Below are positions 2,140 through 48,654 of a stretch of 51,154 bases of DNA, one piece after another. Each line of letters starts with the position of its first letter. Position 1 is the first letter of the stretch. The notes beneath the pieces were generated by a model. It was not told the origin of the DNA and did no database searches. It saw only the letters and a program-made list of their open reading frames with translations. This DNA is from a virus. The stretch covers positions 1-51,154 of IMG/VR virus record IMGVR_UViG_3300018946_000001; one strand, given 5' to 3'. Both the position numbers and the translations under genes were made by a program.

Positions 2140-2636
2140 GCTACATCGCCCTCGCCTGCTATGTGTCAACCATCGTCGCCGCGAACGCCGCCATTGGCAC
2201 CTTCGGCCTGGTGCCCGTGGGCCTCGGCCTCCTCGCACCAGCGGGCGTGTACTTTGCTGGACTTGCCTTCGTGCTGCGTGACATCCTACAGGACACGCTC
2301 GGCCGCCGCTGGACGCTCGGCGCGATCGCGGCCGGGGCGCTGCTCTCTGGTCTGCTTGACCCGGCCTTAGCTATTGCCAGCGGCGGGGCGTTCCTCCTGA
2401 GTGAACTGGCGGATATGGTGGTCTATACACCACTGCGCCGCCGCTCGTGGCTGTGGGCGGCGTTGGCGAGCAGCACCGTGGGGCTGGCAGTCGATAGCGT
2501 GCTGTTCCTCTGGCTGGCATTCGGCAGCCTGGACTTCCTCGCGGGGCAGATCGTCGGTAAGGTGTGGGTGACGCTGCTGTGTGTGGTCATCTGGGGGCTG
2601 GTGCGCGGGCAGCGACGGGCGGAGGTGGCGCGATGA
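2121..2636 (+). CDS. yhhQ: YhhQ/VUT-family queuosine-precursor (preQ0) transporter-like membrane protein
   Basis: Polytopic membrane protein. FVLRDILQDTLG, SGGAFLLSELADMVVYTPLRRRSW and STVGLAVDSVLF align by eye to E. coli YhhQ (DUF165). Confidence 0.7.
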   Translation: MARPTIGYIALACYVSTIVAANAAIGTFGLVPVGLGLLAPAGVYFAGLAFVLRDILQDTLGRRWTLGAIAAGALLSGLLDPALAIASGGAFLLSELADMVVYTPLRRRSWLWAALASSTVGLAVDSVLFLWLAFGSLDFLAGQIVGKVWVTLLCVVIWGLVRGQRRAEVAR

Positions 2637-3142
2637 CAACAGGCGGCTATGTGGATATTCCACTCAGCCTCTACGGCTATGGCGAGCCGGAGTCGCCCAC
2701 GCCGCTTGCCATTGTGCGGCGGCGCATCCAGCGCAAGCAATGTGCCGCGTGTGGGGCAACACTACGAGATACGCGACGACGGTTGTGTGGGGCGTGTCAA
2801 AAGGCAGGGTTGAAGTATTGCCCCGCCTGCGAGACGGTCAAGGCGGTTGATGCATTCAGTGTGAAGCGGCGCGATGTGAGCGGGCGCGAGGCGTATTGTT
2901 GGGAGTGTGATGGACGCCGTGAACCACCGCACCGCCAACGCAAAAGCACGAACCCGCCGCGCCGCCGGCGCGAAAGCGTTGAAGTTCACGAACAGCGTGG
3001 AAAGTTGCTTGTGGAGCTTCACGACAAAGATGGACTCACCTGGGAGCAGGCGGGGGCGCAGTTTGGCATTAGTAAACTTGCGGCGAAGTCCCACGCCCGG
3101 CGATGGCGGGTGCGACAGCAACAACAGGAAGGTACACGATGA
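2633..3142 (+). CDS. Cys-rich zinc-ribbon protein with a C-terminal HTH
   Basis: CAACG..LCGAC..KYCPAC..CWEC, then LTWEQAGAQFGISKLAAKSHARR (HTH-like). ATGA-coupled start. Paralogous Cys pattern in 4384-4830. Confidence 0.55.
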   Translation: MTTGGYVDIPLSLYGYGEPESPTPLAIVRRRIQRKQCAACGATLRDTRRRLCGACQKAGLKYCPACETVKAVDAFSVKRRDVSGREAYCWECDGRREPPHRQRKSTNPPRRRRESVEVHEQRGKLLVELHDKDGLTWEQAGAQFGISKLAAKSHARRWRVRQQQQEGTR

Positions 3143-3813
3143 GCGGGCTACGAATCATCGGCTATGCCGAGCCATCCCCCGAGCAGTGGGATTTTACGAT
3201 CCGAGGAATGCGTAACTCCTGGGAGAGTTGGCAGAAGGGTGATAGCGAGGTGCAGCACGATGCAGAACTGGCTATTGGTTTCGACTTCGGCCCAGCAGAT
3301 ACCGCGCTCGCCTTGCGCCTGGCACAGATCGGCAGCGACCACGGCAAGTACCTGCGAATGCTGCCGGTGATTGTGGAGATCGAGGCCCCCGGCTACTGGT
3401 GGAAGGAGTTTGATACGTACCGCGTGGGCGTCGAGGCCAGCGACGTGACGCAGAACAGCACCAGCATGATGCACACCCTCGGCCGGGAGCCGTTCCATAG
3501 CGATATGTTTTGCTTCGAGGGTATTGATCCAGTAGCCGCTGACTATCTTGTGCGCTCCCTGAACAGGCTGCGCGATGCCTGGATCGCCACGGGCAAGCAC
3601 AAAGGCCCAGAGGCCGCCGCGTGGCGTGCGCTCCAACAGGCGGTGCCGTATGGCTTCCTCTACCATCGCACGGTGAGCCTCAACTATCAGGTGCTTCGCT
3701 CGATCTACCACGCTCGCCGCAACCATCGGCTCGCCGAGTGGCGCACGTTCTGTACCTGGATTGAAATGTTGCCCAACAGTGCCCTTCTTACCACAACGAA
3801 AGAAAAATCATGA
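3139..3813 (+). CDS. Divergent ThyX-fold (flavin-dependent thymidylate synthase-like) protein lacking the canonical RHR signature
   Basis: EIEAPGYWWKEFDTYRVGVEASDVTQNSTSMMH and VSLNYQVLRSIYHARRNHRLAEWR parallel the ThyX RHRxxS...SxRY and N-R-hf-R-AQwEiR blocks. Key residues are substituted. Confidence 0.5.
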   Translation: MSGLRIIGYAEPSPEQWDFTIRGMRNSWESWQKGDSEVQHDAELAIGFDFGPADTALALRLAQIGSDHGKYLRMLPVIVEIEAPGYWWKEFDTYRVGVEASDVTQNSTSMMHTLGREPFHSDMFCFEGIDPVAADYLVRSLNRLRDAWIATGKHKGPEAAAWRALQQAVPYGFLYHRTVSLNYQVLRSIYHARRNHRLAEWRTFCTWIEMLPNSALLTTTKEKS

Positions 3814-5283: not shown

Positions 5284-5787
5284 ATGACAGAGCGAGATAG
5301 AGAGCGTTTTTGGTCGAAGGTAGACCAGTCTACAAAAGGATGCTGGGAGTGGAAGGGTGGGAAGTTCAGTAACGGGTATGGTTGTTTTAAACTAAACGGC
5401 AAGACTATGAAGGCCCATCGTGTCTCATATATCATAATGCACGATTCAATACCCGAAGGTCTAGTTATATGCCATCGGTGTGATAACCCGTCATGTGTGA
5501 ATCCCGACCATCTGTTTGCAGCAACAAATGTCGCAAACACTGCTGATCGTGTGGCTAAAAAACGTAGTGCATTTGGATTACGGAATGGATGGCATACACA
5601 TCCTGAGAAGCGTCTTTTTGGGGAACTGAACAAAAAGACTCGTCTTCAGGCAGATGATGTGCGCCAAATTAGACAAAGGTATACAGATGGAGTTGCTACT
5701 ATTCGTGAACTTGCCAGAGAGTATGGAGTATGGGATGGAAGTATTCAACATATTATCAAAAGACGAACATGGAAACATATTCCCTGA
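5284..5787 (+). CDS. HNH homing endonuclease (HNH_3-type) with a C-terminal HTH
   Basis: RFWSKVD..GCWEWKG..NGYG...AHRVSY...CHRCDNPSCVNPDHL...N. GGAGG RBS 5 nt before the ATG at 5284. AT-richer than the flanks by eye. Confidence 0.85.
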   Translation: MTERDRERFWSKVDQSTKGCWEWKGGKFSNGYGCFKLNGKTMKAHRVSYIIMHDSIPEGLVICHRCDNPSCVNPDHLFAATNVANTADRVAKKRSAFGLRNGWHTHPEKRLFGELNKKTRLQADDVRQIRQRYTDGVATIRELAREYGVWDGSIQHIIKRRTWKHIP

Positions 5788-5906
5788 GGTCTGCTACGGC
5801 GCAGATGCGGCGTGGGCTGATCCTGAGAAGCGCAAGCAGCACGGAGCACGAATCAAGGCAGCGGTACAAGAGGCACGAAAACGAAAATTACAGGAGGTTT
5901 CTGGTT

Positions 5907-6143
5907 ATGAACAAGACATGCTTGACCTGCTCTAAGTGGATTGTCGCCGAGTGCCAACATGTACGTTGTTCTGTAAACAAGCGAGAGGCGCTACGAAGTG
6001 ATCTCCCTTATCTTGCAGCTTGCCAAGCGTATCAATATAGTACGGATGCCCTTAATCCATTATGGGAGCCTAATGTGAGTGACGCAGTGATCCAAGATGG
6101 AGGCGGATTGATATGTGGAGAGAAACAGGTAAATACACTATAG
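5907..6143 (+). CDS. Small Cys-containing hypothetical protein
   Basis: AGGAGG at 5892-5897, 9 nt upstream of the ATG. MNKTCLTCSKW...CQHVRC. Overlaps the next gene by 31 nt. Confidence 0.35.
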   Translation: MNKTCLTCSKWIVAECQHVRCSVNKREALRSDLPYLAACQAYQYSTDALNPLWEPNVSDAVIQDGGGLICGEKQVNTL

Positions 6144-6673
6144 AGTTGCACGAGTTCTTACTGCAAAAGGAATACGGTAAGAAGCGTCTGTCCTGTGTTT
6201 ATGTCATTCGTGACATTGTAGATGCAGTGGTTCTCTATGTAGGGCAATCTACAGCCGGTGTACAGTCACGTATCTGGCAACACATTCACACGAATAAACT
6301 CCTGGCCGACGCAATATGCCGCCGATGGGAACCGCCAGATCCTTTGCATTGCGAGGTGGCAGTGATACACGGTTCACTAGATGAAGCAGAGCGATGGTAT
6401 ATACAGACGCTCAGTCCGGCATTTAATAAAATTAAGTACAAAAACAAGGCGATTGTGCCACCTGAGCAGGTTGTATCTACTCAGCCCATTTATTCAGAAT
6501 TGTCTAAATGGAAAAATGCTGCTGTGTCATTGCCCCACATACAACCTATTGGCACCCCTCGCATTATGTATGATACTCACTTGTCACAAGATACCGCTAC
6601 GCTGGAACGGTTAGACCAGTTATATGCCAAGGCATACCGTGATCCTGGTCATCCCGACGCAAAGAATGAGTAA
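6113..6673 (+). CDS. GIY-YIG-domain nuclease
   Basis: VYVIRD...VLYVGQS...SRIWQH...AERWYIQTLSPAFN supplies the GIY, YIG, R, E and N positions. Confidence 0.65.
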   Translation: MWRETGKYTIELHEFLLQKEYGKKRLSCVYVIRDIVDAVVLYVGQSTAGVQSRIWQHIHTNKLLADAICRRWEPPDPLHCEVAVIHGSLDEAERWYIQTLSPAFNKIKYKNKAIVPPEQVVSTQPIYSELSKWKNAAVSLPHIQPIGTPRIMYDTHLSQDTATLERLDQLYAKAYRDPGHPDAKNE

Positions 6674-6794: not shown

Positions 6795-7340
6795 ATGCAT
6801 GACCCAATGACTGTTGCCCACGAGATACGCCGCCCCTGGGCAGACAAGAAGCCAATGATGGGTGGCTTTCGTTACTACCCGTCACTTGTGACAATCTGGC
6901 ACGTTGACCCTGAGAAGGATGGCACCGATGATAGCTGTGATTGGTTCTATCGCAACCTTACCGAGCAAGAACGCGCCGCCGCGCTGGAGATGAGGACCAA
7001 TGTGAATACGGTTAATCATCCGCGTTGTCTCTTTGGTACTATATCGCAGGAAGATCAAGAACATATTCTACTCTTACAATGGCGTGCTGCTCGTGACTAC
7101 TACCGCCCACGTCCCTGGTGGCAGCACCCTCGCTGGCACATTCACCACTGGAAGATCCAAGTCCATTTCGTTCAGGCGCTGAAGCGATTTTTGTTCTCTC
7201 GTTGTGCTAAGTGCGGCAAGGGGTTCCCCTGGAACTATGCGCCTATCTCTAGCTCGTGGAGCGGCGGCGGGCCGCGCTGGTTCCGTGGTGAGCCGAACGT
7301 GTTCCATCACGGGTGTGACGGCGATACGTACGTAGCCTAA
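6795..7340 (+). CDS. Conserved-looking hypothetical phage protein (His/Trp-rich, C-terminal Cys pair)
   Basis: GGAGG RBS 5 nt upstream. IWHVDPEKDGTDDSCDW and RWHIHHWKIQV...CAKCG motifs. Last gene before the convergent terminators. Confidence 0.6.
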   Translation: MHDPMTVAHEIRRPWADKKPMMGGFRYYPSLVTIWHVDPEKDGTDDSCDWFYRNLTEQERAAALEMRTNVNTVNHPRCLFGTISQEDQEHILLLQWRAARDYYRPRPWWQHPRWHIHHWKIQVHFVQALKRFLFSRCAKCGKGFPWNYAPISSSWSGGGPRWFRGEPNVFHHGCDGDTYVA

Positions 7341-7358: not shown

Positions 7359-7385
7359 AAAGCCCAGGCGAGTTGCCTGGGCTTT
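7359..7385 (+). terminator. Hairpin 1 of the convergent terminator cluster
   Basis: AAAGCCCAGGC / GCCTGGGCTTT, an 11-bp stem with a 5-nt loop, 19 nt after the 6795-7340 stop. Confidence 0.6.
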
Positions 7386-7419: not shown

Positions 7420-7438
7420 CGATACACTCCCGCAAAGC

Positions 7439-7471
7439 GAAGCCCCGGCGATCACTGATCGCCGGGGCTTC
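7439..7471 (-). terminator. Hairpin 3 of the convergent terminator cluster
   Basis: GAAGCCCCGGCGATC / GATCGCCGGGGCTTC, a 15-bp perfect stem with a 3-nt loop, 23 nt downstream of the minus-strand stop at 7494. Confidence 0.65.
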
Positions 7472-7493
7472 GTCGTATCTAGCACTGCACTGC

Positions 7494-7811
7494 CTAGTCA
7501 GTAATGACCCGATCTGCTATCAGGCTCTCTCTGCTTACGATGTCGCCCGGACGACCGTCGCTCCACACTTCCCGGTATGCCTTCTTCCCTGCTCGGAGCA
7601 TCACGCCTGTGTCACTGCATGGTGCGTCCTGCGCCAGAATAAGTGCATCCCAGCCGACAATGTGCGGTGGATCGGGATATTGTGCTGGAAAGTGCTGTTG
7701 ATGGAGCGCTGCTACTGCTTGCTCGATCACTGCGGTCTTGCTGTTGTCATAGTAGGGCAACAAATCCGCCATCTGCCGTTTGAGCTGTTCCGTTTCGCGA
7801 TAGCCAGCCAT
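7494..7811 (-). CDS. Hypothetical protein
   Basis: 105-aa ORF. Its start overlaps the stop of the upstream minus-strand gene by 1 nt. Protein-like composition. Confidence 0.5.
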   Translation of the reverse strand: MAGYRETEQLKRQMADLLPYYDNSKTAVIEQAVAALHQQHFPAQYPDPPHIVGWDALILAQDAPCSDTGVMLRAGKKAYREVWSDGRPGDIVSRESLIADRVITD

Positions 7812-8137
7812 CAGTACTCCTCATCTAGCGTATCGAACCGCTCACGCAAGGAGGCAATGGCGCTGTCGAAGTAACTCAGGGCGGGCTCGTCGTTGTTCAT
7901 CTCGTCAGTGTCAAGCTGGGGGATGCCGAGAATAAGCCCAGGCGACTCGTACAGATTGCCAATCTCATTGTTCCACAGGACACGAAACGTACCGTCATCA
8001 AACAGTTCCACCGAATACCCGCTGCCGCCATAGCCCGCCTGGGTTGATGAGATAATCGCATCTTCCGCCGAATCTACTATGAACGCCTCGAACGCTGCGC
8101 CAAACTGCTGCTGAAGTGTCATCGCTGTACCTTTCAC
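7811..8137 (-). CDS. Acidic hypothetical protein
   Basis: 108-aa ORF (GTG at 8137 or ATG at 8122), D/E-rich (DTDEMNNDE, DTLDEEY). Preceded by its own promoter and operator. Confidence 0.5.
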   Translation of the reverse strand: MKGTAMTLQQQFGAAFEAFIVDSAEDAIISSTQAGYGGSGYSVELFDDGTFRVLWNNEIGNLYESPGLILGIPQLDTDEMNNDEPALSYFDSAIASLRERFDTLDEEY

Positions 8138-8153: not shown

Positions 8154-8184
8154 GTGTGTTACAATGTAACACTTCGTAACACAC
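8154..8184. promoter_or_regulatory. Operator: 17-bp perfect palindrome plus a third half-site
   Basis: GTGTTACAATGTAACAC (8156-8172) is centred on the -10 element. An extra GTAACAC sits at 8176-8182. Confidence 0.55.
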
Positions 8185-8191
8185 TTGTCTA
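8163..8191 (-). promoter_or_regulatory. Candidate sigma70-type promoter for 8137-7494
   Basis: On the minus strand: TAGACA, 17 nt, TACATT. Confidence 0.45.
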
Positions 8192-8210: not shown

Positions 8211-8246
8211 AAACGAAAGCGCCCGGCTCGGTGGAGCGGGGCGCTT
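8211..8246 (-). terminator. Rho-independent terminator after 8265-8939
   Basis: 13-bp GC-rich stem with one mismatch, 4-nt loop, followed on the minus strand by TCGTTTGT. Confidence 0.6.
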
Positions 8247-8264: not shown

Positions 8265-8939
8265 CTAGTGGTTGTGCCGAGTGCCGCGCTTGCGGGTTCT
8301 GCGGCCCTTTACGTCCGAGGCTGACAGCAGTTCGTTGCAGCCACAGGCGCATACCGGCAACTCGGCTGCTTGCGTGGCTACTGGCGGTGCTGGCACAAGT
8401 AGTGGTGTGTGTGCAGGCGTCACGGAATTAGGCTCCCGGGCGCTTGCAGGCACTGCTGCTTCTGAGTTGTCGTCTTCCTCGACCGCTTGCACCTCAACAG
8501 CCGGTGTGTACTCAACTTGGGGCGCAATGCGTGCGTAGTTCAGTGCGGGCTCATCCTTGACCGGCGCTGTATGCAGCAATAGATCCGACACGAGGTATGC
8601 TACCCAGGCCAACGGCGCACCGTGTAGCACTGCCAGCAAGCACTCACCCCAGAACGGCAGCGATGCAAGCAACTCAGTGTTGCGGTGGAACAACCCAGCC
8701 AGTGTGTTGTATAGCACGCTGGTAACGACCGCGCCCACGCTGATGAGGGTTGCACGTCGCCTGCCAGCATTGTCCAGTCCTTGTACCACAGCCAAACCAA
8801 TGTATGTCAACTCAAATGCAGCTGCTTGCACAACAGCTACCCAGAACGGAACGAACAGCGCCGCGAATGAATACACGCCGTAGCTTGCAGCCAGTGCAAG
8901 CATCGGAAGCGGCAAGCGTGCCAGAAGATTACGCCACAT
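8265..8939 (-). CDS. Polytopic membrane protein with a Pro/Ala-rich linker and a Cys/basic C-terminal tail
   Basis: About 4 hydrophobic helices in the N-terminal 120 aa. The C-terminus is CACGCNE...KGRRTRKRGTRHNH. Confidence 0.6.
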   Translation of the reverse strand: MWRNLLARLPLPMLALAASYGVYSFAALFVPFWVAVVQAAAFELTYIGLAVVQGLDNAGRRRATLISVGAVVTSVLYNTLAGLFHRNTELLASLPFWGECLLAVLHGAPLAWVAYLVSDLLLHTAPVKDEPALNYARIAPQVEYTPAVEVQAVEEDDNSEAAVPASAREPNSVTPAHTPLLVPAPPVATQAAELPVCACGCNELLSASDVKGRRTRKRGTRHNH

Positions 8940-8943
8940 ATAT

Positions 8944-9972
8944 TTATGCCTCTTGTGCCTGCTTCGCTTCGCGTGACAGGCGTACTATTTGATTGTAATC
9001 ACCACCTAATTCCCGAAGGATTGCACGGGTACTTTTGCCATCAACTGCAAGCTCTTGCACTCGTTCTTGCCACGCTATGCTATCCGCCGAGGGTGTGCTA
9101 TCGTGGCTGCTATAGCGCTCTATAGCGGGGTATAGCGGCTCTCCGATAGCAGCGAATGCGCGGTTTGTGTGCAAGGTTTGGTCAACCATTTTCGGCACAG
9201 AGCGGGTATCAAGTTCGTGTTTTTCCTTGCCCCAGCGATAAGCCCATGCGCGGTAGGTATCTTCCTCGCACTCGACAAACAAGCAGTTGTGCCGTGCCTC
9301 GCCGCGCCCTTCCCATCCCCATGCCTTGACGTTTGTTTCAGTGGCGCAAATGATTACACGCACTCGTGATGAGCGGCCGAGCGTTACCAGATCCAGCACG
9401 GTATCACGCAGCTCTGGACACTTACCGATCACGGTGCTGTACTCATCAACCACGACGGTTAGCCACGGTAGATCCTCGGTTGCTTCGTCGTCTGCGTTGC
9501 GTCGTAGCATCTCGCTGTACACTGCTTGCACGGCCAAGGCGATAGGCTCAAAGCTCATATCTTCCTGGCGCAAGCGCACCGCCGGGAAATCGCCCCACGG
9601 ATCTGCGCGGCGGCTCTTCGGTGTACAGATCACAAGCTGCCCTGGCCTATCGTGTAGGGCTGCAAGCACCAGCGACGTTTTGCCGCTGCCGCTCGGCCCG
9701 CTAACGGCAAGGTGGGGGGTCTTATCGGGCTGATTGTTTAGCCGGTCAAGCCATGCCTGCGGTGCCAGGGGGGGTGTACTTGCAGGCATTGCAAGCGTGC
9801 TTGCAGGCGGCGGCTGGTGAGCGCGTGCTGATGCTTGCGGTGTCGTTGTGTGTGCTTTGCCCCGGCCTATTTGTGACAGCCACAGCAGACCGTAGCAAAG
9901 CGTCGCACCAATGATGCATAACCACACTGCACCGAACATAATCACTTCTGGCGTAATTTCGCGCTCACCCAT
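8944..9972 (-). CDS. Membrane-anchored FtsK/SpoIIIE (TraB-like) P-loop DNA translocase with a C-terminal HTH
   Basis: N-terminal TM (FGAVWLCIIGATLCYGLLWL). Walker A is VSGPSGSGKTS and Walker B is LTVVVDEYS. ICTPK, VYSEMLRR and GRSSRVRVIICATETN parallel the FtsK blocks. C-terminal STRAILRELGGDYNQIVRLS. Confidence 0.7.
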   Translation of the reverse strand: MGEREITPEVIMFGAVWLCIIGATLCYGLLWLSQIGRGKAHTTTPQASARAHQPPPASTLAMPASTPPLAPQAWLDRLNNQPDKTPHLAVSGPSGSGKTSLVLAALHDRPGQLVICTPKSRRADPWGDFPAVRLRQEDMSFEPIALAVQAVYSEMLRRNADDEATEDLPWLTVVVDEYSTVIGKCPELRDTVLDLVTLGRSSRVRVIICATETNVKAWGWEGRGEARHNCLFVECEEDTYRAWAYRWGKEKHELDTRSVPKMVDQTLHTNRAFAAIGEPLYPAIERYSSHDSTPSADSIAWQERVQELAVDGKSTRAILRELGGDYNQIVRLSREAKQAQEA

Positions 9973-9983
9973 AGCCGCCTCCT

Positions 9984-10463
9984 CTAATGCTTGTGCTTGA
10001 CCAAGATCCGCTCTGGTAGTATGTCGCTACCGACTACGCCTATCAGAAGCATCAGCCAGGCGTTAATCGTTGCAACAACCTCGACGAACGGACCATCTAT
10101 CCATTGAAAAAGTATACCGCTGATGTCTAGTAGCCACGGGAACAGCGGTTCGTGAAAGCTGAGTGTTGACGGGATAGCACTGGCGGCCAGTGCGAACAGA
10201 TACCACCAGTGGCGATTTGTACGAAGAAAGGCGAACTGCATACCGCTGAATACTACCTGCCAAGCAAGCGCAAAAAAGAATGCCTTGACCGCGGTTCCGT
10301 CTCGCTCTCCCAGCCGATCCCATCCGCCATTGAACAATACGAAGTTGCCGAACATACTGATAAGGAACAGCCCGCCAGCAAAGAAGCGTAGCCCGTTGAC
10401 CGCAATTGGTTCTGCCAGCGAGGTGGGGATAACGCCCGTTTCGATGCCGCGTACATTCGCCAT
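9984..10463 (-). CDS. Polytopic membrane protein (about 4 TM)
   Basis: 159-aa hydrophobic ORF in the same operon. Confidence 0.6.
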   Translation of the reverse strand: MANVRGIETGVIPTSLAEPIAVNGLRFFAGGLFLISMFGNFVLFNGGWDRLGERDGTAVKAFFFALAWQVVFSGMQFAFLRTNRHWWYLFALAASAIPSTLSFHEPLFPWLLDISGILFQWIDGPFVEVVATINAWLMLLIGVVGSDILPERILVKHKH

Positions 10464-10465
10464 GA

Positions 10466-10690
10466 CTAGCCTCCTTGCTGTGCCAGCGCTTGCAGAGCAA
10501 TCGCGGCGAGATATGCCAACACACTAAACAGCACCACACGAGCAAGCGCCTTTGGCGCGTAATCACGTTGACCGCGTAAGGTCCATGCACCTACTGTGCA
10601 TGCAGCCACAATGGGAAAGGGGCCAGCAATTGCGAGCGTACGCAAGAAGACCCACGTTGCCGTTAGTACGGCGTATGCTTCTGGTGTCAT
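10466..10690 (-). CDS. Small membrane protein (2-3 TM)
   Basis: 74-aa hydrophobic ORF. Overlaps the upstream gene by 4 nt. Confidence 0.5.
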   Translation of the reverse strand: MTPEAYAVLTATWVFLRTLAIAGPFPIVAACTVGAWTLRGQRDYAPKALARVVLFSVLAYLAAIALQALAQQGG

Positions 10691-10872
10691 TTGCCACCTG
10701 CCAAATACGAGCTAGTGGCGAGCATCCCTAGCACGGTCGGCACAATGAACAAAGCCACTGCCAACAACATTGTCCAGAGCCGTGCCGCTCGTGGCAGGCC
10801 GAACCCCCACAGCAGCACACCGATAGCGATAATTAAGCCGATGGCATTGAACGTATCAACGACTTCACCCAT
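10687..10872 (-). CDS. Small membrane protein (2 TM)
   Basis: 61-aa hydrophobic ORF. GGGGGA RBS 7 nt upstream on the minus strand. Confidence 0.5.
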   Translation of the reverse strand: MGEVVDTFNAIGLIIAIGVLLWGFGLPRAARLWTMLLAVALFIVPTVLGMLATSSYLAGGK

Positions 10873-10958
10873 GATATAATCCCCCTGTAATTGGAGCTGC
10901 TCCGCAGCTTTCGATTGCGCCGGTCAGGGGTTGTAACTGTCCAGGTCGCGCCCCTGAC

Positions 10959-11144
10959 CTACCCATCTTCCTTTGTTTCTTTGATCCGCACCCACTCCTC
11001 TACAGCTTTTTCCGTAATGCGGTATTGCTTGCCTGGCCGGGTCGCTGCGAGCTTCTTTTGCTTAATGGCCCGCGTTACCGTATTCGGTGTAATCCTGAAA
11101 CGTTCTGCTACCTCTTCTACCGTATATACCTTCTCTTCATTCAC
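10959..11144 (-). CDS. Excisionase/MerR-type (HTH_17) DNA-binding protein
   Basis: YTVEEVAERFRITPNTVTRAIKQKKL...RPGKQYRITEKAVEEWV. I trimmed the track ORF to the GTG at 11144 (AGAGAGGT RBS), because the promoter lies inside the longer ORF. Confidence 0.65.
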   Translation of the reverse strand: MNEEKVYTVEEVAERFRITPNTVTRAIKQKKLAATRPGKQYRITEKAVEEWVRIKETKEDG

Positions 11145-11160
11145 ATGCTTACCTCTCTTT

Positions 11161-11188
11161 CCTGTATTCCTGTATTCCTGTAATTGCG
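11161..11188. repeat. Tandem 8-mers CCTGTATT / CCTGTATT / CCTGTAATTGCG
   Basis: Three head-to-tail copies just downstream of the minus-strand promoter. CTGTAATTG(CG) recurs at 11205-11215 and 10885-10893, and CCTGTATT recurs at 11313-11320. Confidence 0.8.
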
Positions 11189-11190
11189 TT

Positions 11191-11219
11191 ATTGTAGCAC
11201 GTTGCTGTAATTGCGTCAA
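11191..11219 (-). promoter_or_regulatory. Near-consensus promoter of the minus-strand membrane/FtsK-like operon
   Basis: On the minus strand: TTGACG, 17 nt, TACAAT. Confidence 0.65.
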
Positions 11220-11325
11220 TAAAAACTAGTTTCACCCCCACCCAGCCCCGCTCCTCAGTGGGGCTTTCGCTTGCCCGGCGGGCGGCGTGGGCGCGGATTG
11301 CTCCCCGAATTGCCTGTATTGCCTA

Positions 11326-11353
11326 TTGACATTGTTTTCATTAGTGCTATAAT
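11326..11353 (+). promoter_or_regulatory. Consensus promoter of the rightward early operon
   Basis: TTGACA, 16 nt, TATAAT, with TGc just upstream of the -10. Confidence 0.7.
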
Positions 11354-11358
11354 GAAAA
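11335..11358. promoter_or_regulatory. Inverted-repeat operator overlapping the -10
   Basis: TTTTCATTA, 6 nt, TAATGAAAA (9-bp perfect arms). Confidence 0.55.
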
Positions 11359-11393
11359 CAAGGAAGTAAGGGATTACAAGAAAGCGAACGACA

Positions 11394-11561
11394 ATGACAC
11401 ACACGATTGAAGTAATAAAAAAAGCAACTGGCTGGAAAGTCTACACCGCAGTCTACGGTAGCCCTCGTGATACATTCCAGTACAAGACTGAGAAGGCAGC
11501 GGTACGGAAGGTTCAGGAATTAGAGCGCAATGGGTACACGCTTGTAACGTTGTCAAAGTAA
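11394..11561 (+). CDS. Small hypothetical protein (55 aa, below the ORF-track cutoff)
   Basis: First ORF after the consensus promoter: MTHTIEVIKKATGWKVYTAVYGSPRDTFQYKTEKAAVRKVQELERNGYTLVTLSK. Weak RBS. Confidence 0.4.
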   Translation: MTHTIEVIKKATGWKVYTAVYGSPRDTFQYKTEKAAVRKVQELERNGYTLVTLSK

Positions 11562-11569
11562 GGAGCAGG

Positions 11570-11821
11570 ATGGCACCGAAGGAGAACAAGAACGCAGTAG
11601 GGAGCCAGGGAAATCGCTCTGGCTCCCGCTATAAAGGCGGGCGACCACCGGAACGCTACCTCAAGTTGGATCTTGGCAAGGAACGTATCAAGGCGCTGCG
11701 AACCCTCGCAACCGCCGAAGGACTGACGCCCGCCGCGCTGGTGGAGCAATGGATAGCCGAGCGATTAGCACCGCCGCCCGCTGTGGGCGACGGGGCGGAT
11801 ACGAAGAAAGAGGAACGATAA
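11570..11821 (+). CDS. Ribbon-helix-helix (CopG/Arc-like) DNA-binding protein
   Basis: AGGAG RBS. LKLDLGKERIKALRTLATAEGLTPAALVEQWIAE gives the strand-helix-helix pattern. Confidence 0.6.
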   Translation: MAPKENKNAVGSQGNRSGSRYKGGRPPERYLKLDLGKERIKALRTLATAEGLTPAALVEQWIAERLAPPPAVGDGADTKKEER

Positions 11822-12030
11822 TGTTTTCTAAGTCTGTTTCATGTGAGCGATGCGGTACAACAGATAACGTGGTTACATCGCACCTAACAGTACAACTGGA
11901 TGGTGGTATGCAAAACGAAGCACAATTCAGGCTATGTTTGCCTTGTCAGCGTGAAGGGCGCGACATGGAGCCGCTAGAGAGCATTAGCGACTTCTTGACA
12001 CGAGTGCAGCCAGCAACGGAGGGTATGTGA
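11821..12030 (+). CDS. Small zinc-ribbon protein
   Basis: TAATG overlap start. CERCG...CLPCQ. Confidence 0.5.
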   Translation: MFSKSVSCERCGTTDNVVTSHLTVQLDGGMQNEAQFRLCLPCQREGRDMEPLESISDFLTRVQPATEGM

Positions 12031-12305
12031 CAAAAAAGGCATACCCCCTAGATATACAAGATATTCGGGAGTTTGAAGGCGGTCCGCGTCCGATCTGGTA
12101 TACATCGAAGGGGCACCATGACGCTACGGTGTTCTGTGAAGAATTGCAGCGCGTGTATGGCATACATGTGGAGCCCTCAGAAGTGCGCCAGGGATGGCAA
12201 CGAACTGTACCAAGCGGTCCTGACTATCCTGGCTGGGTTGCAGTGTGGCCTGCAAGGGCGGGTGCGCGTGGCGCGTATCCGATTACGGTGGTTGAGATAC
12301 CGTAG
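12027..12305 (+). CDS. Hypothetical protein
   Basis: GTG start overlapping the upstream stop. 92 aa. Confidence 0.5.
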   Translation: MTKKAYPLDIQDIREFEGGPRPIWYTSKGHHDATVFCEELQRVYGIHVEPSEVRQGWQRTVPSGPDYPGWVAVWPARAGARGAYPITVVEIP

Positions 12306-12316
12306 TTATGAGGTGA

Positions 12317-12598
12317 ATGCTTGCAGGTACTAGAACAATGACCCCCTTCGACCGCCGCTTGCTCGCCGCCATCGTGCGCCTCGGCCGTAACGCCTACGGT
12401 GTGACAATCCGCCAAGCGGTCGCCGCTGCCGAGGGCAGGGACACGGCGATTGGGGCAGTGTACGCGGCGCTGGAGCGGCTAGAGGAACAAGGGCTGGTTG
12501 ACAGCTTCGAGGGCGAGGCAACGGCAGGGCGCGGCGGGCGGCGGAAACGGTACTGGATCGTGACGAATGCGGGGAAAGTTACACTAGAGAGAGGTTGA
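12317..12598 (+). CDS. PadR-like winged-helix transcriptional regulator
   Basis: YGVTIRQAV...GAVYAALERLEEQGLVDS...RRKRYWIVTNAGK. The start could instead be the ATG at 12338. Confidence 0.6.
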   Translation: MLAGTRTMTPFDRRLLAAIVRLGRNAYGVTIRQAVAAAEGRDTAIGAVYAALERLEEQGLVDSFEGEATAGRGGRRKRYWIVTNAGKVTLERG

Positions 12599-13426: not shown

Positions 13427-13480
13427 CGTGATACTAATGAGAACGTGACTTCCCACAAGTATACATAACAAGGAGATATG

Positions 13481-13813
13481 ATGGCAACATTCGGCAGTGC
13501 GGTGCGGTCGCTTCGCAAGGAAGCAGGTTTGACCCAACGGCAACTTGCTACGTTGCTCAGCGTTGATTTCACCTACATCAGCAAGATTGAGAACGGGCGC
13601 ACCGATATGCCACCGAGCTGTATGCTGATCACACACATGGCTACTGTATTTAACATGCCACCCGATGACCTGTTGGCACTGGCAGGACAGCTTGACTACA
13701 AGGCATTGCAGCAAGTAGCGATGGAGGTACCAGAGGTGGCACGGTTGCTACGGCGGCTCCAAACTCGGCAGTTCAGTGTAGATGCTATTCGGCGGTTCTT
13801 AAAGGGGGCGTGA
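13481..13813 (+). CDS. XRE-family HTH transcriptional regulator
   Basis: AGGAG 5 nt upstream. VRSLRKEAGLTQRQLATLLSVDFTYISKIENGR. Confidence 0.8.
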   Translation: MATFGSAVRSLRKEAGLTQRQLATLLSVDFTYISKIENGRTDMPPSCMLITHMATVFNMPPDDLLALAGQLDYKALQQVAMEVPEVARLLRRLQTRQFSVDAIRRFLKGA

Positions 13814-14645: not shown

Positions 14646-15926
14646 GTGAGCCGGGAACGTGCACTCCCATTCCCGCTGGTGCTGGCAGATATTATGAGTC
14701 TCAACCTAGATACACGTACCTATCGTAAAGATCTGAAGTTCAAGCCAGGCCACGGCTATGGCCGCCGAGTTGGCAACCTGTGGCTTGGCACGCGCCCCGC
14801 GCCGCCCCGCTCGATCCTGTACCATACGACCAACAACCCGCGAGGTAACACTTCCTACCCATCAGAGGCTCGATTCCTGCGCGATAGTGCCGATGTATCT
14901 ATCCAGTACGTTGTCAGTTCTGATGATGACACCGTGGTGCAAGTCCTCCCTGATGATATGGTGGCATGGCATAGCGGCAGTTGCTACGATGCGGCCTACG
15001 AAAACAATGCCTCAATAGGCATTGAAATCGCCTGGACGATCAACAAAGGCCCGCTGCCACAGATCGCCATTGAGAATCTCACAGAGCTTACCCGACACTT
15101 GCTTACACTGCACCCCCAAATTGGCAACAGGCTTGACCTGCACCGCCGACAGGCACAGCCCAAAGGCCGCAAGACCGACCCAGCGGGCTGGACTGACGCG
15201 GCCTTTGATGCCTGGCGCGATATGGTGCTTCAGCCTGTTCCCTTTGTTCATCACGCCGAAGATAGCCTACCCGCACCGATCAACGACCTCAACCGAATGA
15301 ACCCAACTAGCCAAAGCCCCATCCTTGGCCCTGCATCAGCCACCGCCGCGCAGTGCATCGCCTATATCAAGAGCAGGCCGCACGGCACGTACACCGTTGA
15401 TGATGTAGCCACCATTGTCCGTGTCTACTTCGGGCAGGCCGAACTGGTGGGCGTTGACCCGGTGGTAGCTATCGCGCAGATGATCCATGAAACCGGCAAC
15501 CTGACGAGTGCTTTAAGCCAACGCGCTGACAAGTATAAGCGCCCACTGCGTAACCCCGCTGGCATCGGCGTGAACGGCGATCAAAGCTCGATCCCGCTGG
15601 GAGGCTACGTGTGGGACAGCGATCGAGGCATGTACCGGCGCTGCGTCGGCTTTCGCTCGTGGGCAGATGAGAGCATTCCGGCGCACCTGGGACGATTGCT
15701 GGCCTATGCGTTGCCCGTTGATGCAGCGAGCCCGATACAGCAAGAATACATTGACCAGGCGCTACGCTTCCGGGGGCTGCCCGCTGCAATGCGTGGCAGT
15801 TCCCCTCGACTAGAACAGCTCGGTGCCTCCAGAAATCCCACACGAAATGGCTGGGCCTCGCCCGGGGATCGGTACGGAGCGGCTATCGCAGAGGTGATGA
15901 CGGCAATCCAACAGGTGCGGGTATGA
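14646..15926 (+). CDS. Bifunctional endolysin: N-acetylmuramoyl-L-alanine amidase (Amidase_2) plus glucosaminidase-like domain
   Basis: N-terminus: ILYHTTNNP...VAWHSG...ASIGIE...HRRQAQPKGRKTDPAGW. C-terminus: AIAQMIHETGNLTS...NPAGIGV. The start could instead be the ATG at 14694. Confidence 0.8.
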   Translation: MSRERALPFPLVLADIMSLNLDTRTYRKDLKFKPGHGYGRRVGNLWLGTRPAPPRSILYHTTNNPRGNTSYPSEARFLRDSADVSIQYVVSSDDDTVVQVLPDDMVAWHSGSCYDAAYENNASIGIEIAWTINKGPLPQIAIENLTELTRHLLTLHPQIGNRLDLHRRQAQPKGRKTDPAGWTDAAFDAWRDMVLQPVPFVHHAEDSLPAPINDLNRMNPTSQSPILGPASATAAQCIAYIKSRPHGTYTVDDVATIVRVYFGQAELVGVDPVVAIAQMIHETGNLTSALSQRADKYKRPLRNPAGIGVNGDQSSIPLGGYVWDSDRGMYRRCVGFRSWADESIPAHLGRLLAYALPVDAASPIQQEYIDQALRFRGLPAAMRGSSPRLEQLGASRNPTRNGWASPGDRYGAAIAEVMTAIQQVRV

Positions 15927-16369
15927 ACACTCCAACCGATCCAAAGGCACTCCTTCAGAGCCTCCCGCCACGGCCGACCTTTGAAGAGGCGTTGGCCCGT
16001 GAGCGTGCGCTGAATCCTGACGATCCCGATGCGGTACATCGCGCCTTTGCGAATATCCTTCACAGCCATGGTCTGCGAGATGATGTTGTATACATCTATG
16101 GTGCAGACGAGATAGAGGCATCGCGTAAGGATCGCGCCGAGCAAGCACAGCGACTTATTGCACTTAGCGAGCAGATTGATGAGCGATTCGCCGCACTTGA
16201 GAAAAATACCAATGAGCGCCTTATCGCACTTGAACAGAACCAGGCTGATGTGATCAGCGCGTTCCGGGTAACCAATGAGAACCTGAGTAAGATGTTCGTG
16301 ATCTTGTGGCAACTCCAGCAGGCGCAACCAGTGGCAACCCGGGCGGCGGGAGAACAGGCACCATCGTGA
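15923..16369 (+). CDS. Coiled-coil hypothetical protein (lysis-cassette neighbour)
   Basis: ATGA overlap start. Heptad-like RLIALSEQIDERFAALEKNTNERLIALEQ. Confidence 0.5.
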   Translation: MNTPTDPKALLQSLPPRPTFEEALARERALNPDDPDAVHRAFANILHSHGLRDDVVYIYGADEIEASRKDRAEQAQRLIALSEQIDERFAALEKNTNERLIALEQNQADVISAFRVTNENLSKMFVILWQLQQAQPVATRAAGEQAPS

Positions 16370-16857
16370 TACCCGAAGAGTTTGAGGCATTTCGGCGTGA
16401 GACACGAATGGAGATCCAGCGCAACACCGAGACGCTGGCGAATCACATTAAGGCTATCAACAAGGTGATTACCTCGTTGAACCTTGTGTTTGTACAGCAA
16501 ATGGAAGCCGAACGGATGCTTCAAGAGGGCGGCATGCCGGTTGATGATGAGACCGACCGTTCACGGCTTATTGTGAATGCCTCCACGCTCGGTGTGCTCT
16601 CGCAACTAAATGGCACGATGTTACACGTTGAGGCGTACTTGGAGAGCGAGCGGGCCAATCTGGAGCACATTCACACCAGGCAGCAGCACGGGCTTGACGT
16701 GTTAAACCGCATTCTTGGCTACTGGCAATGGTTTCGCCTGATGGTGGTAGCCATCCTTATTCTGGTCATCTTCGGGGTCATGGGCGTCATTCTGATCATC
16801 TTTGAAAACGTCCAGATCCTAGAGGGCGTTGGCCTGCGGTACTTTGGGGGTCGCTGA
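16366..16857 (+). CDS. Coiled-coil protein with a C-terminal TM anchor
   Basis: GTGA overlap start. C-terminal WFRLMVVAILILVIFGVMGVILIIF. Confidence 0.5.
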   Translation: MIPEEFEAFRRETRMEIQRNTETLANHIKAINKVITSLNLVFVQQMEAERMLQEGGMPVDDETDRSRLIVNASTLGVLSQLNGTMLHVEAYLESERANLEHIHTRQQHGLDVLNRILGYWQWFRLMVVAILILVIFGVMGVILIIFENVQILEGVGLRYFGGR

Positions 16858-16860
16858 TGT

Positions 16861-17304
16861 ATGATACAGCTTTGGCTCTATCTCCTGTGTATCTTGGTTG
16901 GTACGGCAGCACTGTTTGTGGCCGCTACTCGACTTGCAGAAGCACGCCCGCAAATGTGGGGGCCGCTGGTACTGGTGTCAATCACCATCAGCACGCTTGT
17001 GATGGTAGGGGTGATTGCGGGTGTGCTGATCGACCGCTTCGCCAGCAAGGTTGCCTATTTCATCGACCTGCACCGGTACACCTACTATCAGGCGCAAGAG
17101 AAAGCCAAGGATCTGGAGAGCGAGTTGCACAAGGCGGATCACGATATCAGCCTGCTTGTACAGGACAAACAACAACTCGAACAAACCATAGCCGAGCAAG
17201 CGAAACGCATCAACAGTATGGAGCCGCAGATCAAGGAACTCCACGGGTTACGGGCACAAATCGGCAAACGAGCTACGGACAAGGACTTATCGAGTACGCC
17301 CTGA
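16861..17304 (+). CDS. Membrane protein: two N-terminal TM helices plus a coiled coil
   Basis: LWLYLLCILVGTAALFVAA and LVLVSITISTLVMVGVIAGVLI, followed by a heptad-rich region. The overlapping frame-3 ORF 16857-17411 looks non-coding apart from its last roughly 45 codons. Confidence 0.6.
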   Translation: MIQLWLYLLCILVGTAALFVAATRLAEARPQMWGPLVLVSITISTLVMVGVIAGVLIDRFASKVAYFIDLHRYTYYQAQEKAKDLESELHKADHDISLLVQDKQQLEQTIAEQAKRINSMEPQIKELHGLRAQIGKRATDKDLSSTP

Positions 17305-17411
17305 TCCTGGTCTTCATCGTCTTCCTTGGTATCGGTGTCTATACGTTGACCGGGAGCCGAGCGAACAACTGGTACAGGCCGGTGACGAGTGGCCTGGAGG
17401 TGGGGCGATGA
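17277..17411 (+). other. Flp/Fap-pilin-like hydrophobic segment without an in-frame start (candidate -1 recoding extension)
   Basis: GQGLIEYALILVFIVFLGIGVYTLTGSRANNWY. There is no ATG, GTG or TTG between the junk-like upstream part of the frame and the motif. Its stop is ATGA-coupled to the next gene. Confidence 0.4.
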
Positions 17412-18378: not shown

Positions 18379-18506
18379 TGACAGAGCAAGAACAACGCAG
18401 ACTGCGCTACATGGAGCAGTGTGTGGTGGCATCCCTTCTAAACACAACGGTTCTTGCGGATGAAGATATAGCGCAGATCCGGAAAGATTATGGCAATAAC
18501 CGCTAA
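18378..18506 (+). CDS. Small hypothetical protein (42 aa)
   Basis: TGATG overlap start: MTEQEQRRLRYMEQ.... Confidence 0.35.
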   Translation: MTEQEQRRLRYMEQCVVASLLNTTVLADEDIAQIRKDYGNNR

Positions 18507-18975
18507 ACAAAAGATATTCATTGAATACTATCTCGCGAATGGTTGCAATGCCACCGATGCGGCACGAAAGGCAGGCTACAAAGATCCAGAGCAAGCAGGG
18601 TATGAAAACAAGAGAAAACAAGAGATCCAAGCCGCAATTAGGCAACGATTAAGCGAGAAGACCATGGGTGCTGATGAAGCGCTCGCCCGCCTAACCGACC
18701 AAGCGAGAGGCAGCATTGCGCCGTTCCTACGCTTCACACCGGGTTTTCCCGCAACACTAGATCTAAAGAGTGATGAGGCAAAGAAGCACTTGCATCTCAT
18801 AAAGAAATACACAGTCGGCAAAGATAACACGGTTGGCATTGAACTCTATGATGCACAAAGCGCCCTTGCACTGCTCGGGAAGCATTACGGGCTGTTGACC
18901 GACAAGAGCGAACAGAGCGGCACGATCACCGTTCGTATCATTGATGAGACACACACAGATGCGACAGACGATTGA
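18490..18975 (+). CDS. terS: Terminase small subunit (Terminase_2/P27-like)
   Basis: KQKIFIEYYLANGCNATDAARKAGY...EQAGYENKRK. Located directly upstream of TerL. Confidence 0.8.
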   Translation: MAITAKQKIFIEYYLANGCNATDAARKAGYKDPEQAGYENKRKQEIQAAIRQRLSEKTMGADEALARLTDQARGSIAPFLRFTPGFPATLDLKSDEAKKHLHLIKKYTVGKDNTVGIELYDAQSALALLGKHYGLLTDKSEQSGTITVRIIDETHTDATDD

Positions 18976-20158
18976 CATCGCATTGCCCCGGCTGCATCAA
19001 GCGCAGCGGCAGATCGTGAGCGAGGCGCGGCGCTTCAATGCGCTGTGCTGCGGGCGACGCTTTGGTAAATCAACGCTCGGTGTACAGTTGCTGGCACGCA
19101 CTGCCCTTGGCGGCAAGCCCGCCGCGTGCTTCTTTCCTACGTACCGGATGTTGGCCGAGGTTTGGCGGGATCTGGTGGCACGACTCGCACCGATCACGCG
19201 CGGGAAGCGCGAGCAGGAACACCGCCTTGATTTACTCACCGGCGGTGTGATCGAGATGTGGAGCCTGCAAGAGCCAAACGTGGCCCGTGGGCGAAAGTAC
19301 GCCCGCGTGGTGATCGATGAGGCGGCGATGATTGCTCCACTCGAAGAGGCATGGCAAGCCGTTATTCGGCCCACGCTTACCGATTATGCCGGTGATGCAT
19401 GGTTTCTTTCGACGCCCAAGGGTCAGAACTATTTCGCCGCGCTCTATGATAAAGGCCAGCAGGCTGAGGGTGATTGGCAGAGCTGGCGTATGCCCTCGCA
19501 CCAGAACCCGCACCTGCCCCCGAGTGAACTGGTTGCGCTGCAAGATGAACTGCCCGCGCTCGTGTATGCACAAGAGGTGCTGGCAGAGATCGTCGCTGAT
19601 GGACTAGCGGTGTTCAACCCGGGGGATCTGGACCGGGCTGACCGTTTGCCTGTAGACACGCCGCCGATGCCCTCTATGCATACCCTTATGAGCGTAGACA
19701 TAGGCCGGCGGCGTGATGCAACCGTGATCAACGTGTTTGATACGCGACGAGAGCCGTTCCAGCGGGTGTACCACGAACGCTTGGACCGAGTACCTTACCC
19801 CGTTATTCAGTCCACAATTGAGCGGGTAGCGCGGCAATATGGGGGAAGATTGTTCATCGAGAGCAATGGCGTGGGCGATCCGGTGATTGAGAACCTGATG
19901 GTGAAGGCTGAGCCGTTTATCACTACCGCTCGCAGCAAGGCCCAAGCGATTCAGGCACTTCAGTTACTGCTTGAGAAGGGTCGCATTGCAGCTCGTTGGA
20001 CACCACAGGAACGCCGTGAACTGATCGGCTATGCGTGGGATGACCGGGCATTACAGCAAGACTGTGTAATGAGCCTTGCCATTGGTGCGTATCACTTGGT
20101 ACAGCCTCCTCCGCAGCCCGTGCGCCGCCCCGCCTCATTCACCATAGAGACAGGATAG
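18944..20158 (+). CDS. terL: Terminase large subunit
   Basis: Walker A is CGRRFGKST and Walker B is VVIDEAA. Nuclease-half motifs VDIGRRRDATV and IESNGVGD. The start could instead be 18959. Confidence 0.8.
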   Translation: MRHTQMRQTIDIALPRLHQAQRQIVSEARRFNALCCGRRFGKSTLGVQLLARTALGGKPAACFFPTYRMLAEVWRDLVARLAPITRGKREQEHRLDLLTGGVIEMWSLQEPNVARGRKYARVVIDEAAMIAPLEEAWQAVIRPTLTDYAGDAWFLSTPKGQNYFAALYDKGQQAEGDWQSWRMPSHQNPHLPPSELVALQDELPALVYAQEVLAEIVADGLAVFNPGDLDRADRLPVDTPPMPSMHTLMSVDIGRRRDATVINVFDTRREPFQRVYHERLDRVPYPVIQSTIERVARQYGGRLFIESNGVGDPVIENLMVKAEPFITTARSKAQAIQALQLLLEKGRIAARWTPQERRELIGYAWDDRALQQDCVMSLAIGAYHLVQPPPQPVRRPASFTIETG

Positions 20159-42381: not shown

Positions 42382-42401
42382 AAACACTTCTCCTATTTAT
42401 T

Positions 42402-48637: not shown

Positions 48638-48654
48638 AGAAATAAGGTGTGTGT

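Follow-up and report, generated by a model that had tools for sequence, protein, structure and literature searches.

The complex of TraB and the Spd proteins, together with the spd-traB operons that encode it, has been described for Streptomyces plasmids (Thoma et al., PMC4447253), and phage homologues of SpdB2 have been suggested to spread phage DNA (PMC4447253). The gene order on pSVH1 is that of a GntR-type regulator (TraR), small spd genes (spdB3 and spd79 among them), SpdB2 (a DUF2637 protein), orf108 and TraB, and pSLUN2 has the same layout. Among phages, FtsK-like genes occur in Cluster J mycobacteriophages and in Streptomyces and Bacillus phages, and are annotated in a hot-spring Chloroflexus virus (PMC3706429; bioRxiv 10.1101/2024.02.16.580700; PMC8597652); the Cluster J proteins have no membrane domain (PMC3706429). 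In Saccharomonospora phage PIS 136, an FtsK gene and a DUF2637 (SpdB2-type) gene lie adjacent to each other. Here we describe a module of six minus-strand genes (8265–11144) in a 51,154-nucleotide stretch of viral DNA (positions 1 to 51,154 of IMG/VR record IMGVR_UViG_3300018946_000001, referred to as the window), which encodes a 342-residue ATPase and its putative membrane partners. The ATPase stands for a large family, not named before, of minimal FtsK-type motors that are anchored in the membrane and have a conserved partner of four transmembrane (TM) helices; the family is found in mobile elements of filamentous Chloroflexales and on a cyanobacterial plasmid.

The ATPase and its putative membrane partners

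The 342-residue protein (8944–9972, minus strand) is made up of a TM helix (residues ~8–35), a Pro/Ala-rich linker (36–70), a RecA-type motor of about 200 residues (~70–275) and a three-helix C-terminal domain (296–341). The AlphaFold2 (AF2) model, built from an alignment of 28 homologues, has a pLDDT of 85.9, with the linker modelled at low confidence. The motor contains a Walker A motif (GPSGSGKT, 92–99), a Walker B motif (VVVDE, 173–177) and the sequence LGRSSRVRVI (198–207), and residues G97, K98, D176, G199, S201 and R205 are invariant in the 28 sequences.

Four independent lines of evidence place this protein in the FtsK/SpoIIIE/EccC clade. In a Foldseek search of the PDB with the AF2 model, FtsK (6t8g, 5.3e-7), EccC (3.7e-6) and TcpA (1.4e-5) were matched, and the top 25 matches were FtsK, EccC, TcpA and EssC, all with a probability of 1.0. 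A family profile built from 120 diverse members matched EccC (1.5e-12), EccC5, FtsK (1.4e-8) and YukB among PDB sequences, the best domain on EccC (2.4e-9) being aligned from Walker A to the GRSLGV motif; a concatenated RecA chain also scored 1.1e-12, with the match confined to Walker A. Within the 120 members, Pfam identified FtsK_SpoIIIE (PF01580) in 44 (best 5.8e-7), nSTAND1 in 21 and DUF87 in 15. Lastly, tblastn gave weak matches to annotated FtsK/SpoIIIE genes of Bacillus and Mycobacterium phages (25–28% identity over ~140 residues).

Taken singly, the window ATPase has no PF01580 match at E≤1, its best Pfam match being nSTAND1 (28.6 bits), and its other single-sequence matches are weak: TIGR03924 EccCa at 6.3e-6 (residues 158–207) and PHROG FtsK at 9e-4, the scores for TIGR03924 and TIGR03925 (25 and 23 bits) falling below the respective cut-offs of 509 and 347. 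A STAND NTPase was considered and rejected: the protein passes the nSTAND1 gathering score by 1.5 bits, but the top Foldseek matches include no STAND structure and the relatives match FtsK_SpoIIIE twice as often as nSTAND1. A packaging ATPase was likewise rejected, since the phage has a terminase large subunit and the protein is membrane anchored. By Foldseek, Pfam and profile, the ATPase does not group with non-translocase P-loop families, which the preliminary description of this DNA had named as the outcome that would count against a translocase. Its proposed TM anchor, Pro/Ala linker and FtsK/SpoIIIE ATPase are upheld by structure and profile, while the C-terminal helix-turn-helix (HTH) it had also named is suggested by the modelled structure and has no Pfam match; this domain is predicted to be a three-helix bundle (pLDDT >90) with no wing, and it probably binds DNA.

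Related proteins are also found among viral structures. Among the matches in BFVD (A0A345MZL5, A0A1I9S6D5 and A0A482MIE7), unnamed viral proteins of 383–384 residues align with the ATPase model over ~330 columns, covering the full architecture (4e-11 to 7e-10), and a 712-residue protein of Nodularia phage vB_NspS-kac65v161, which infects a filamentous cyanobacterium, also matches the model.

The gene of the 224-residue partner (8265–8939, minus strand) lies 4 nt from the ATPase gene. Based on hydropathy and the AF2 model, in which four long helices are seen, the protein consists of a four-helix membrane domain (residues 1–125), an acidic and Pro-rich linker and a basic tail containing Cys and His residues. 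More than 484 database homologues were found, with 70–80% identity over the TM domain and variable C-terminal parts. In 51 sampled relatives, the tails include HTH_23 (16 of the 51), HNH, sigma-70 region 4 and coiled coils, and some carry zinc-finger-like (C2H2/C2HC-like) Cys/His tails. Since a conserved TM domain is combined with variable tails of DNA-binding type, the family looks like a membrane-tethered DNA binder. Examples of the zinc-finger-like tails are those of the relatives on metagenome contig L009 (11305–12069), with YACKHCG followed by 12 residues, H, 6 residues and H, and on contig L026 (8001–8567), with YQCKRCG followed by 12 residues, H, 3 residues and C. The corresponding motif in the window protein (8265–8360) is degenerate (CACGC ... 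HNH), and AlphaFold places a small beta-beta-alpha element there. A Foldseek search of BFVD with the four-TM model returned a single match, an unnamed viral protein of 230 residues.

Upstream of the ATPase, the operon encodes a 61-residue protein (10687–10872), a 74-residue protein (10466–10690) and, directly before the ATPase gene, a 159-residue polytopic membrane protein (9984–10463), all on the minus strand. Kyte-Doolittle hydropathy predicts two hydrophobic helices in each of the first two proteins, three to four TM segments in the third, a single N-terminal segment in the ATPase and four in the 224-residue protein, and the AlphaFold helices of the latter two agree with these counts. These predictions agree with the three small multi-TM proteins and the four-TM protein of the preliminary description. 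No Pfam, PHROG, NCBIfam or PADLOC family was matched by the 61-, 74- and 159-residue proteins, and no homologue of them was found among the open reading frames (ORFs) of related loci. A polytopic protein nevertheless occupies the position of the 159-residue protein on contigs L001 (192 residues), L008 (207) and L009 (198), and on the plasmid pMIC7113.05 described below (244 residues, five TM helices). A holin role for the small TM proteins is unlikely, because the phage has a separate lysis cassette made up of an endolysin (14646–15926) and TM proteins (16306–17411).

The first gene of the operon encodes an HTH protein of the excisionase/MerR type (10959–11144, minus strand; the ORF is open to 11219), which matches Pfam HTH_17 (1.7e-14), TIGR01764 ‘excisionase family’ (4.8e-14) and PHROG excisionase and DNA-binding families, in agreement with the Xis/MerR-type HTH proposed earlier. 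Translation probably starts at GTG 11144, giving 61 residues, as the predicted promoter (11219–11191) sits within the longer ORF; the gene call on a public metagenome contig has the same length, as did the preliminary description.

All six ORFs that had been listed for this minus-strand operon are real and lie where they had been placed. The genes are tightly packed, with one 4-nt overlap (between the 61- and 74-residue proteins) and gaps of 2, 11 and 4 nt, an arrangement that suits coupled translation, and TM helices are predicted in the five products other than the HTH protein. Given these tight junctions, an own promoter, a hairpin at the end and separately regulated genes beyond it, the transcription unit is 8265–11144 plus the promoter.

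Distribution and neighbouring genes

The ATPase family comprises 977 clusters (50% identity, E≤1e-3). Its pairing with the four-TM protein is seen on L009, L026, L029 and L032, and L009 has the exact order of the window, with HTH_17, polytopic protein, ATPase and four-TM protein with a zinc-finger-like tail. On L001 and L008, the gene directly upstream of that of the ATPase encodes a polytopic protein, and a four-TM, coiled-coil protein with a DNA-binding tail is encoded nearby; on L003, L004, L005 and L007 the ATPase itself has two to four TM helices. Integrases are present in L005, L007, L008 and L026. A second, divergent ATPase paralogue (415 residues, family hidden Markov model (HMM) 7.3e-31) is encoded ~3.5 kb upstream of the first in L005 (5179–6426).

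Partition genes recur beside the ATPase. A ParM-like protein is encoded directly after it in L004 (phrog_691, 1.9e-22), L005 (4e-18) and apparently L003, and ParA is two genes away in L007; on phage contigs and the Allocoleopsis plasmid, these partition genes are located at 2478–3560 (L004), 11478–12569 (L005), ~11100–12047 (L003), 5602–6366 (L007) and 18450–19409 (L034). Such an arrangement suggests that partition and the membrane ATPase are functionally linked.

Two relatives of the module lie outside a recognisable virion context. The best plasmid match is on pMIC7113.05, a 38-kb plasmid of the filamentous cyanobacterium Allocoleopsis franciscana, which encodes a family member of 644 residues (A3 HMM 2.3e-35). 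The operon there consists of ParM (ParM/StbA), about nine small ORFs, a protein with five TM helices and, as its last gene, the ATPase; no virion, relaxase or type IV secretion system (T4SS) genes were found on the plasmid. The other is an element in a metagenome-assembled genome (MAG) of the Oscillochloridaceae (L026), in which an integrase by tRNA-Gly is followed by small genes, an HTH gene, a 510-residue ATPase (A3 HMM 7.9e-21, with DUF87 above threshold), a 188-residue copy of the four-TM protein and Replic_Relax, after which the cargo includes type I restriction-modification (RM) and Abi_2 genes. The integrase (4120–5415 of L030, from the same contig as L026) adjoins a tRNA-Gly(TCC) gene.

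The hosts were traced through the four-TM partner. Its profile, searched against 185,579 species-representative genomes, gave five matches, all of them MAGs of Chloroflexales (Oscillochloris, Oscillochloridaceae, Chloroflexaceae, Chloroflexales and Kouleothrix), which identifies the host clade as filamentous and agrees with the filamentous host that had been postulated; a genome scan with the ATPase alignment gave no matches. In three of the five MAGs (Oscillochloris, Oscillochloridaceae and Chloroflexales) the ATPase gene is adjacent or nearly so, while the Kouleothrix MAG has only a weak ATPase match and the Chloroflexaceae MAG has none. The search for the gene order in Chloroflexota that the preliminary description had called for thus recovered the pair of ATPase and four-TM protein in Chloroflexales MAGs, including L026.

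Relation to known systems and possible functions

The module shares several features with TraB/Spd. In both, a membrane-associated ATPase of the FtsK clade has a C-terminal domain of a DNA-recognition type, and the genes form a translationally coupled operon with small, poorly conserved hydrophobic proteins and a DNA-linked four-TM protein, in filamentous hosts (PMC4447253). The MAG element L026 also has the triad of Int, Tra-like and Rep-like genes known from the AICEs (integrative and conjugative elements of actinomycetes; PMC3218068). In contrast to TraB, which has ~770 residues, the motor protein has 342 and lacks the alpha domain; the four-TM gene follows the ATPase gene, the element is a tailed phage, and there is neither a GntR-type TraR nor a clt array. 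No GntR regulator was detected by the operon, where the leader is HTH_17, or among the 46 other ORFs of the window.

AICEs are defined by Int, Rep and an FtsK-type Tra in a small integrated element without virion genes (PMC3218068), whereas the window is an essentially complete, 51-kb tailed-phage contig as judged by PHROG profiles, which identify the large terminase (TerL, 18941–20158), the major head protein (25496–26584), the endolysin and a primase-polymerase (prim-pol, 48649–51048), and its 46 further ORFs yielded no integrase, ParA, ParB or ParM. A public metagenome contig of 51,168 bp, the one that carries the gene call mentioned above, bears the same set of proteins. The prim-pol had been taken as a sign of AICEs, but prim-pol is common in phages and not diagnostic of them. 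The novelty claimed for a phage with such a pump was also overstated, as PIS 136 and the FtsK-like genes of Bacillus phages and actinophages were already known.

Other systems resemble parts of the module. FtsK (6t8g) is the best fold match, and the FtsK/SpoIIIE proteins share with the window ATPase the Walker A and B motifs, the GR(S/A)xx(I/V) motif, an anchor with a Pro-rich linker and a small C-terminal domain of DNA-binding type; they differ in that the window ATPase has one TM helix rather than four, no alpha domain and no detectable winged-helix gamma signature, and is encoded by mobile elements with dedicated membrane partners. TcpA of pCW3 and the type IV coupling proteins, which serve in DNA transfer, also combine an N-terminal membrane anchor with an FtsK-like ATPase, as reflected in the Foldseek match to TcpA, but no relaxase, VirB4 or other T4SS part is encoded in the window or on pMIC7113.05. 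EccC and EssC have three tandem ATPase domains, against one here. The crenarchaeal Ced import system (CedA, CedA1, CedA2 and CedB) moves DNA between cells and consists of a polytopic protein, two tiny two-TM proteins and a membrane-bound ATPase of the FtsK/HerA type. The link to it is a match at the level of Walker A to the CedB model (E=0.009, 14.7 bits against a cut-off of 700), and Ced belongs to another domain of life. Closest in setting are the FtsK-like genes of cultured phages (Cluster J Omega gp203, Bacillus SPO1-like phages, Streptomyces phages and PIS 136), which likewise encode phage-borne ATPases of the FtsK clade; these proteins match PF01580 directly, have 25–28% identity to the window ATPase over ~140 residues, and none has been described with the partner set found in the window.

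On the analogy with TraB/Spd, we tentatively propose, as the likeliest of the readings considered, that the module may serve to spread the element's own double-stranded DNA (dsDNA) across the septum or membrane in filamentous Chloroflexales. The minimal FtsK-type motor, with one TM helix and a flexible linker, would be tethered to the cytoplasmic membrane, presumably as a hexameric ring, and its C-terminal helical domain would bind DNA. The upstream polytopic protein, the four-TM protein and the two variable two-TM proteins would act as partners of the motor that provide or gate the passage, with the DNA-binding tails holding the substrate. The dsDNA would then be moved across the septal or cell membrane, and the genome would be spread or maintained along the filament, as by TraB and Spd, with the leading HTH protein and the promoter repeats controlling expression of the operon. 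DNA is favoured as the substrate because of the HTH_23, HNH, sigma-70 region 4 and zinc-finger-like tails of the relatives and the three-helix end of the ATPase. The element's own DNA as that substrate, and the septum as the barrier, appear most plausible because the module occurs in a phage, a plasmid and an integrated element of filamentous bacteria, often by partition genes. Its occurrence on pMIC7113.05, without virion genes, and in the tRNA-Gly element of the MAG also argues for a virion-independent role.

Several results weigh against this proposal. The family profile does not match TraB of pSVH1 at E≤10, and its match to TraB of pSLUN2 is confined to the Walker A and B stretches (3.9e-5, against ~1,000 ORFs). 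The motor has no room for an alpha domain, with ~20 residues between the linker and the P-loop strand, and the protein does not reach half the length of TraB. A Pfam scan of the last 75 residues of ten family members revealed no significant HTH or winged-helix match. DUF2637 (PF10935) was not found by Pfam in the 224-residue protein or its 51 relatives, hhalign of the four-TM family against 13 DUF2637 domains (from Streptomyces, Kitasatospora, Streptosporangium, Pseudonocardia and Amycolatopsis plasmids and phage PIS 136) gave P=0.48, and the DUF2637 HMM gave no match. In the window, no clt- or KOPS-like array is present, the counts, clustering and strand skew of 8- to 10-mers being within Markov/composition expectation. 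All the ATPase-bearing metagenome contigs examined (L001–L010) are siphophage-like, with capsid, portal, tape-measure or tail genes, so that the role of the module may be phage specific, and the MAG element could itself be a prophage, since the 16 kb available contain no repeat of the tRNA 3' end that would mark its right end (attR). The opposite-strand, promoter-proximal position of the module also fits exclusion genes expressed in lysogeny.

The TraB/Spd reading of the preliminary description thus stands as an analogy of architecture, with no specific homology to TraB or SpdB2, no TraR and no clt. Querying a database with a DUF2637 domain likewise gave no matches, and with hhalign, hmmsearch and Foldseek all negative, homology of the four-TM protein to DUF2637/SpdB2 was rejected. 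By eye only, the two have in common an acidic residue in TM2, a basic loop, an Asn in TM3 and an acidic residue and a His in TM4. In the literature searched, no link was found between TraB-type transfer and Chloroflexi.

A stronger form of the proposal is that these genes encode an unrecognised minimal FtsK-type septal pump, which passes dsDNA genomes directly from cell to cell along the filament, without virions, in phages of filamentous Chloroflexales and in related plasmids and integrative elements of filamentous Chloroflexales and cyanobacteria; we regard this as doubtful. Such virion-less septal transfer would parallel TraB/Spd, by convergence or by very remote kinship, in a second monoderm filamentous phylum, and would blur the boundary between infection and conjugation. 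If DNA is moved across septa at all, one infection event could let a phage colonise a whole multicellular filament, and FtsK-based dsDNA transfer, so far mainly actinomycete, would extend to Chloroflexota and perhaps to filamentous cyanobacteria, in which little is known about the machinery of conjugation. Even without such a role the family is of interest: it ranks with the smallest FtsK-type motors seen that carry a membrane anchor, an advantage for studies of mechanism, and it opens the FtsK-like genes of phages, long without an explanation, to testing.

The association with partition genes could also be explained if the module were a segregation helper that works with ParM or ParA to clear extrachromosomal prophage or plasmid DNA from closing septa, so that each cell along the filament would receive a copy, with no transfer to a neighbouring cell. 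The ParM-like genes next to the ATPase in L004, L005 and apparently L003, the nearby ParA in L007 and the shared operon with ParM/StbA on pMIC7113.05 are consistent with this, as are FtsK and SpoIIIE being the closest solved folds; the window, with cI-like HTH genes yet no detected integrase, would fit a plasmid-like prophage. We nevertheless consider this role unlikely: the window itself is without ParA, ParB and ParM, four of the related elements (L005, L007, L008 and L026) have integrases, the task is normally done by the FtsK of the host, and dedicated membrane partners are not typical of FtsK-type septum clearance. Less likely again is superinfection exclusion or defence, in which a membrane complex produced by the prophage, or at an early stage of infection, would bar the entry of foreign DNA at the membrane or drive it out, or cause abortive infection. 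The position on the opposite strand, the strong, constitutive-looking promoter and the operator-like repeats are typical of cassettes expressed in lysogeny, RM and Abi cargo lies near the module in L026 and on pMIC7113.05, and PADLOC gives weak matches to the MADS components mad1 and mad8. These matches, however, are to a generic HTH and to part of a P-loop (residues 84–159), with no methyltransferase or other MADS genes, and PADLOC recognised no complete defence system. To our knowledge, the exclusion proteins described so far are small, membrane-located and devoid of an FtsK-type motor, and exclusion would explain neither the DNA-binding tails nor the recurrence of partition genes beside the ATPase.

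The EccC-like features of the motor raise the question of protein export, in which a phage or host protein would pass through the membrane partners as in the type VII systems of EccC and EssC. EccC is the best PDB profile match among translocase-family proteins, EccC and EssC are among the top folds, and the TIGR03924 EccCa match covers residues 158–207. Export is nonetheless very improbable, as the ATPase has a single domain rather than three, Pfam, PHROG and NCBIfam scans recognised no WXG100 or LXG substrate and no EccB-, EccD- or EssB-like partner, the small soluble proteins of 105 to 108 residues encoded downstream belong to a separate transcription unit, and the DNA-binding tails of the partner family point to DNA. 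The four readings together leave some probability for other functions.

Promoter, repeats and flanking genes

The genes of the window are nearly all on the plus strand, and the module forms a minus-strand block with a promoter of its own. A consensus scan identified a sigma-70-like promoter (11191–11219, minus strand), with TTGACG, a 17-nt spacer, TACAAT and a TG element (10 of 12 matches, by pattern only), which falls inside the longer, TTG-started version of the first ORF. Operator-like copies of GCAATTACAG are located in the promoter and the 5' leader (11204–11213 and 11177–11186), a third copy of the repeat CAATTACAG, again operator-like, lies at 10884–10893, and ACAGGAAT is present as two tandem copies at 11166–11181 (direct-repeat family D1, assigned to 11158–11176 by the repeat tool), all on the minus strand. 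No second cluster of these motifs occurs anywhere in the window. The repeats resemble operators and may have a regulatory role. The 8-mer repeats that had been noted nearby are therefore present, as two tandem copies of ACAGGAAT and three of CAATTACAG around the promoter, and do not form a clt-like array.

A perfect sigma-70 consensus promoter (TTGACA, 16 nt, TATAAT, with TG; 11326–11353, plus strand) is directed away from the module promoter. It is spanned by a 34-nt imperfect inverted repeat (region 11310–11383), and a third copy of CCTGTATT lies at 11310–11320. Together, the two promoters resemble a divergent genetic switch. Genes for HTH_3 proteins of the cI/Cro type are located elsewhere in the window, at 41995–42387 (minus) and 13478–13813 (plus).

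At the other end of the module, a G+C-rich hairpin (8217–8246, minus strand; inverted repeat I11, with 13-nt arms that are 92% complementary) is followed by TCGTTTGT. The consensus terminator scan did not call this hairpin, the T run being weak; read in the direction of transcription (8246–8217), it probably marks the end of the operon. Downstream are the genes of two soluble proteins of 108 residues (7811–8137) and 105 residues (7494–7811), for neither of which a family match was found. A promoter-like site and a palindrome (GTGTTACATTGTAACAC) are present just upstream of them (8154–8191), and for this reason they are considered a separately regulated unit. Two perfect hairpins with arms of 11 and 17 bp (7359–7385 and 7438–7472) lie between the convergent genes 6795–7340 (plus) and 7494–7811 (minus) and are probably bidirectional terminators. 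The window also encodes a Dam methylase, a dCTP-deaminase-like protein and endonucleases of the GIY-YIG and HNH types.

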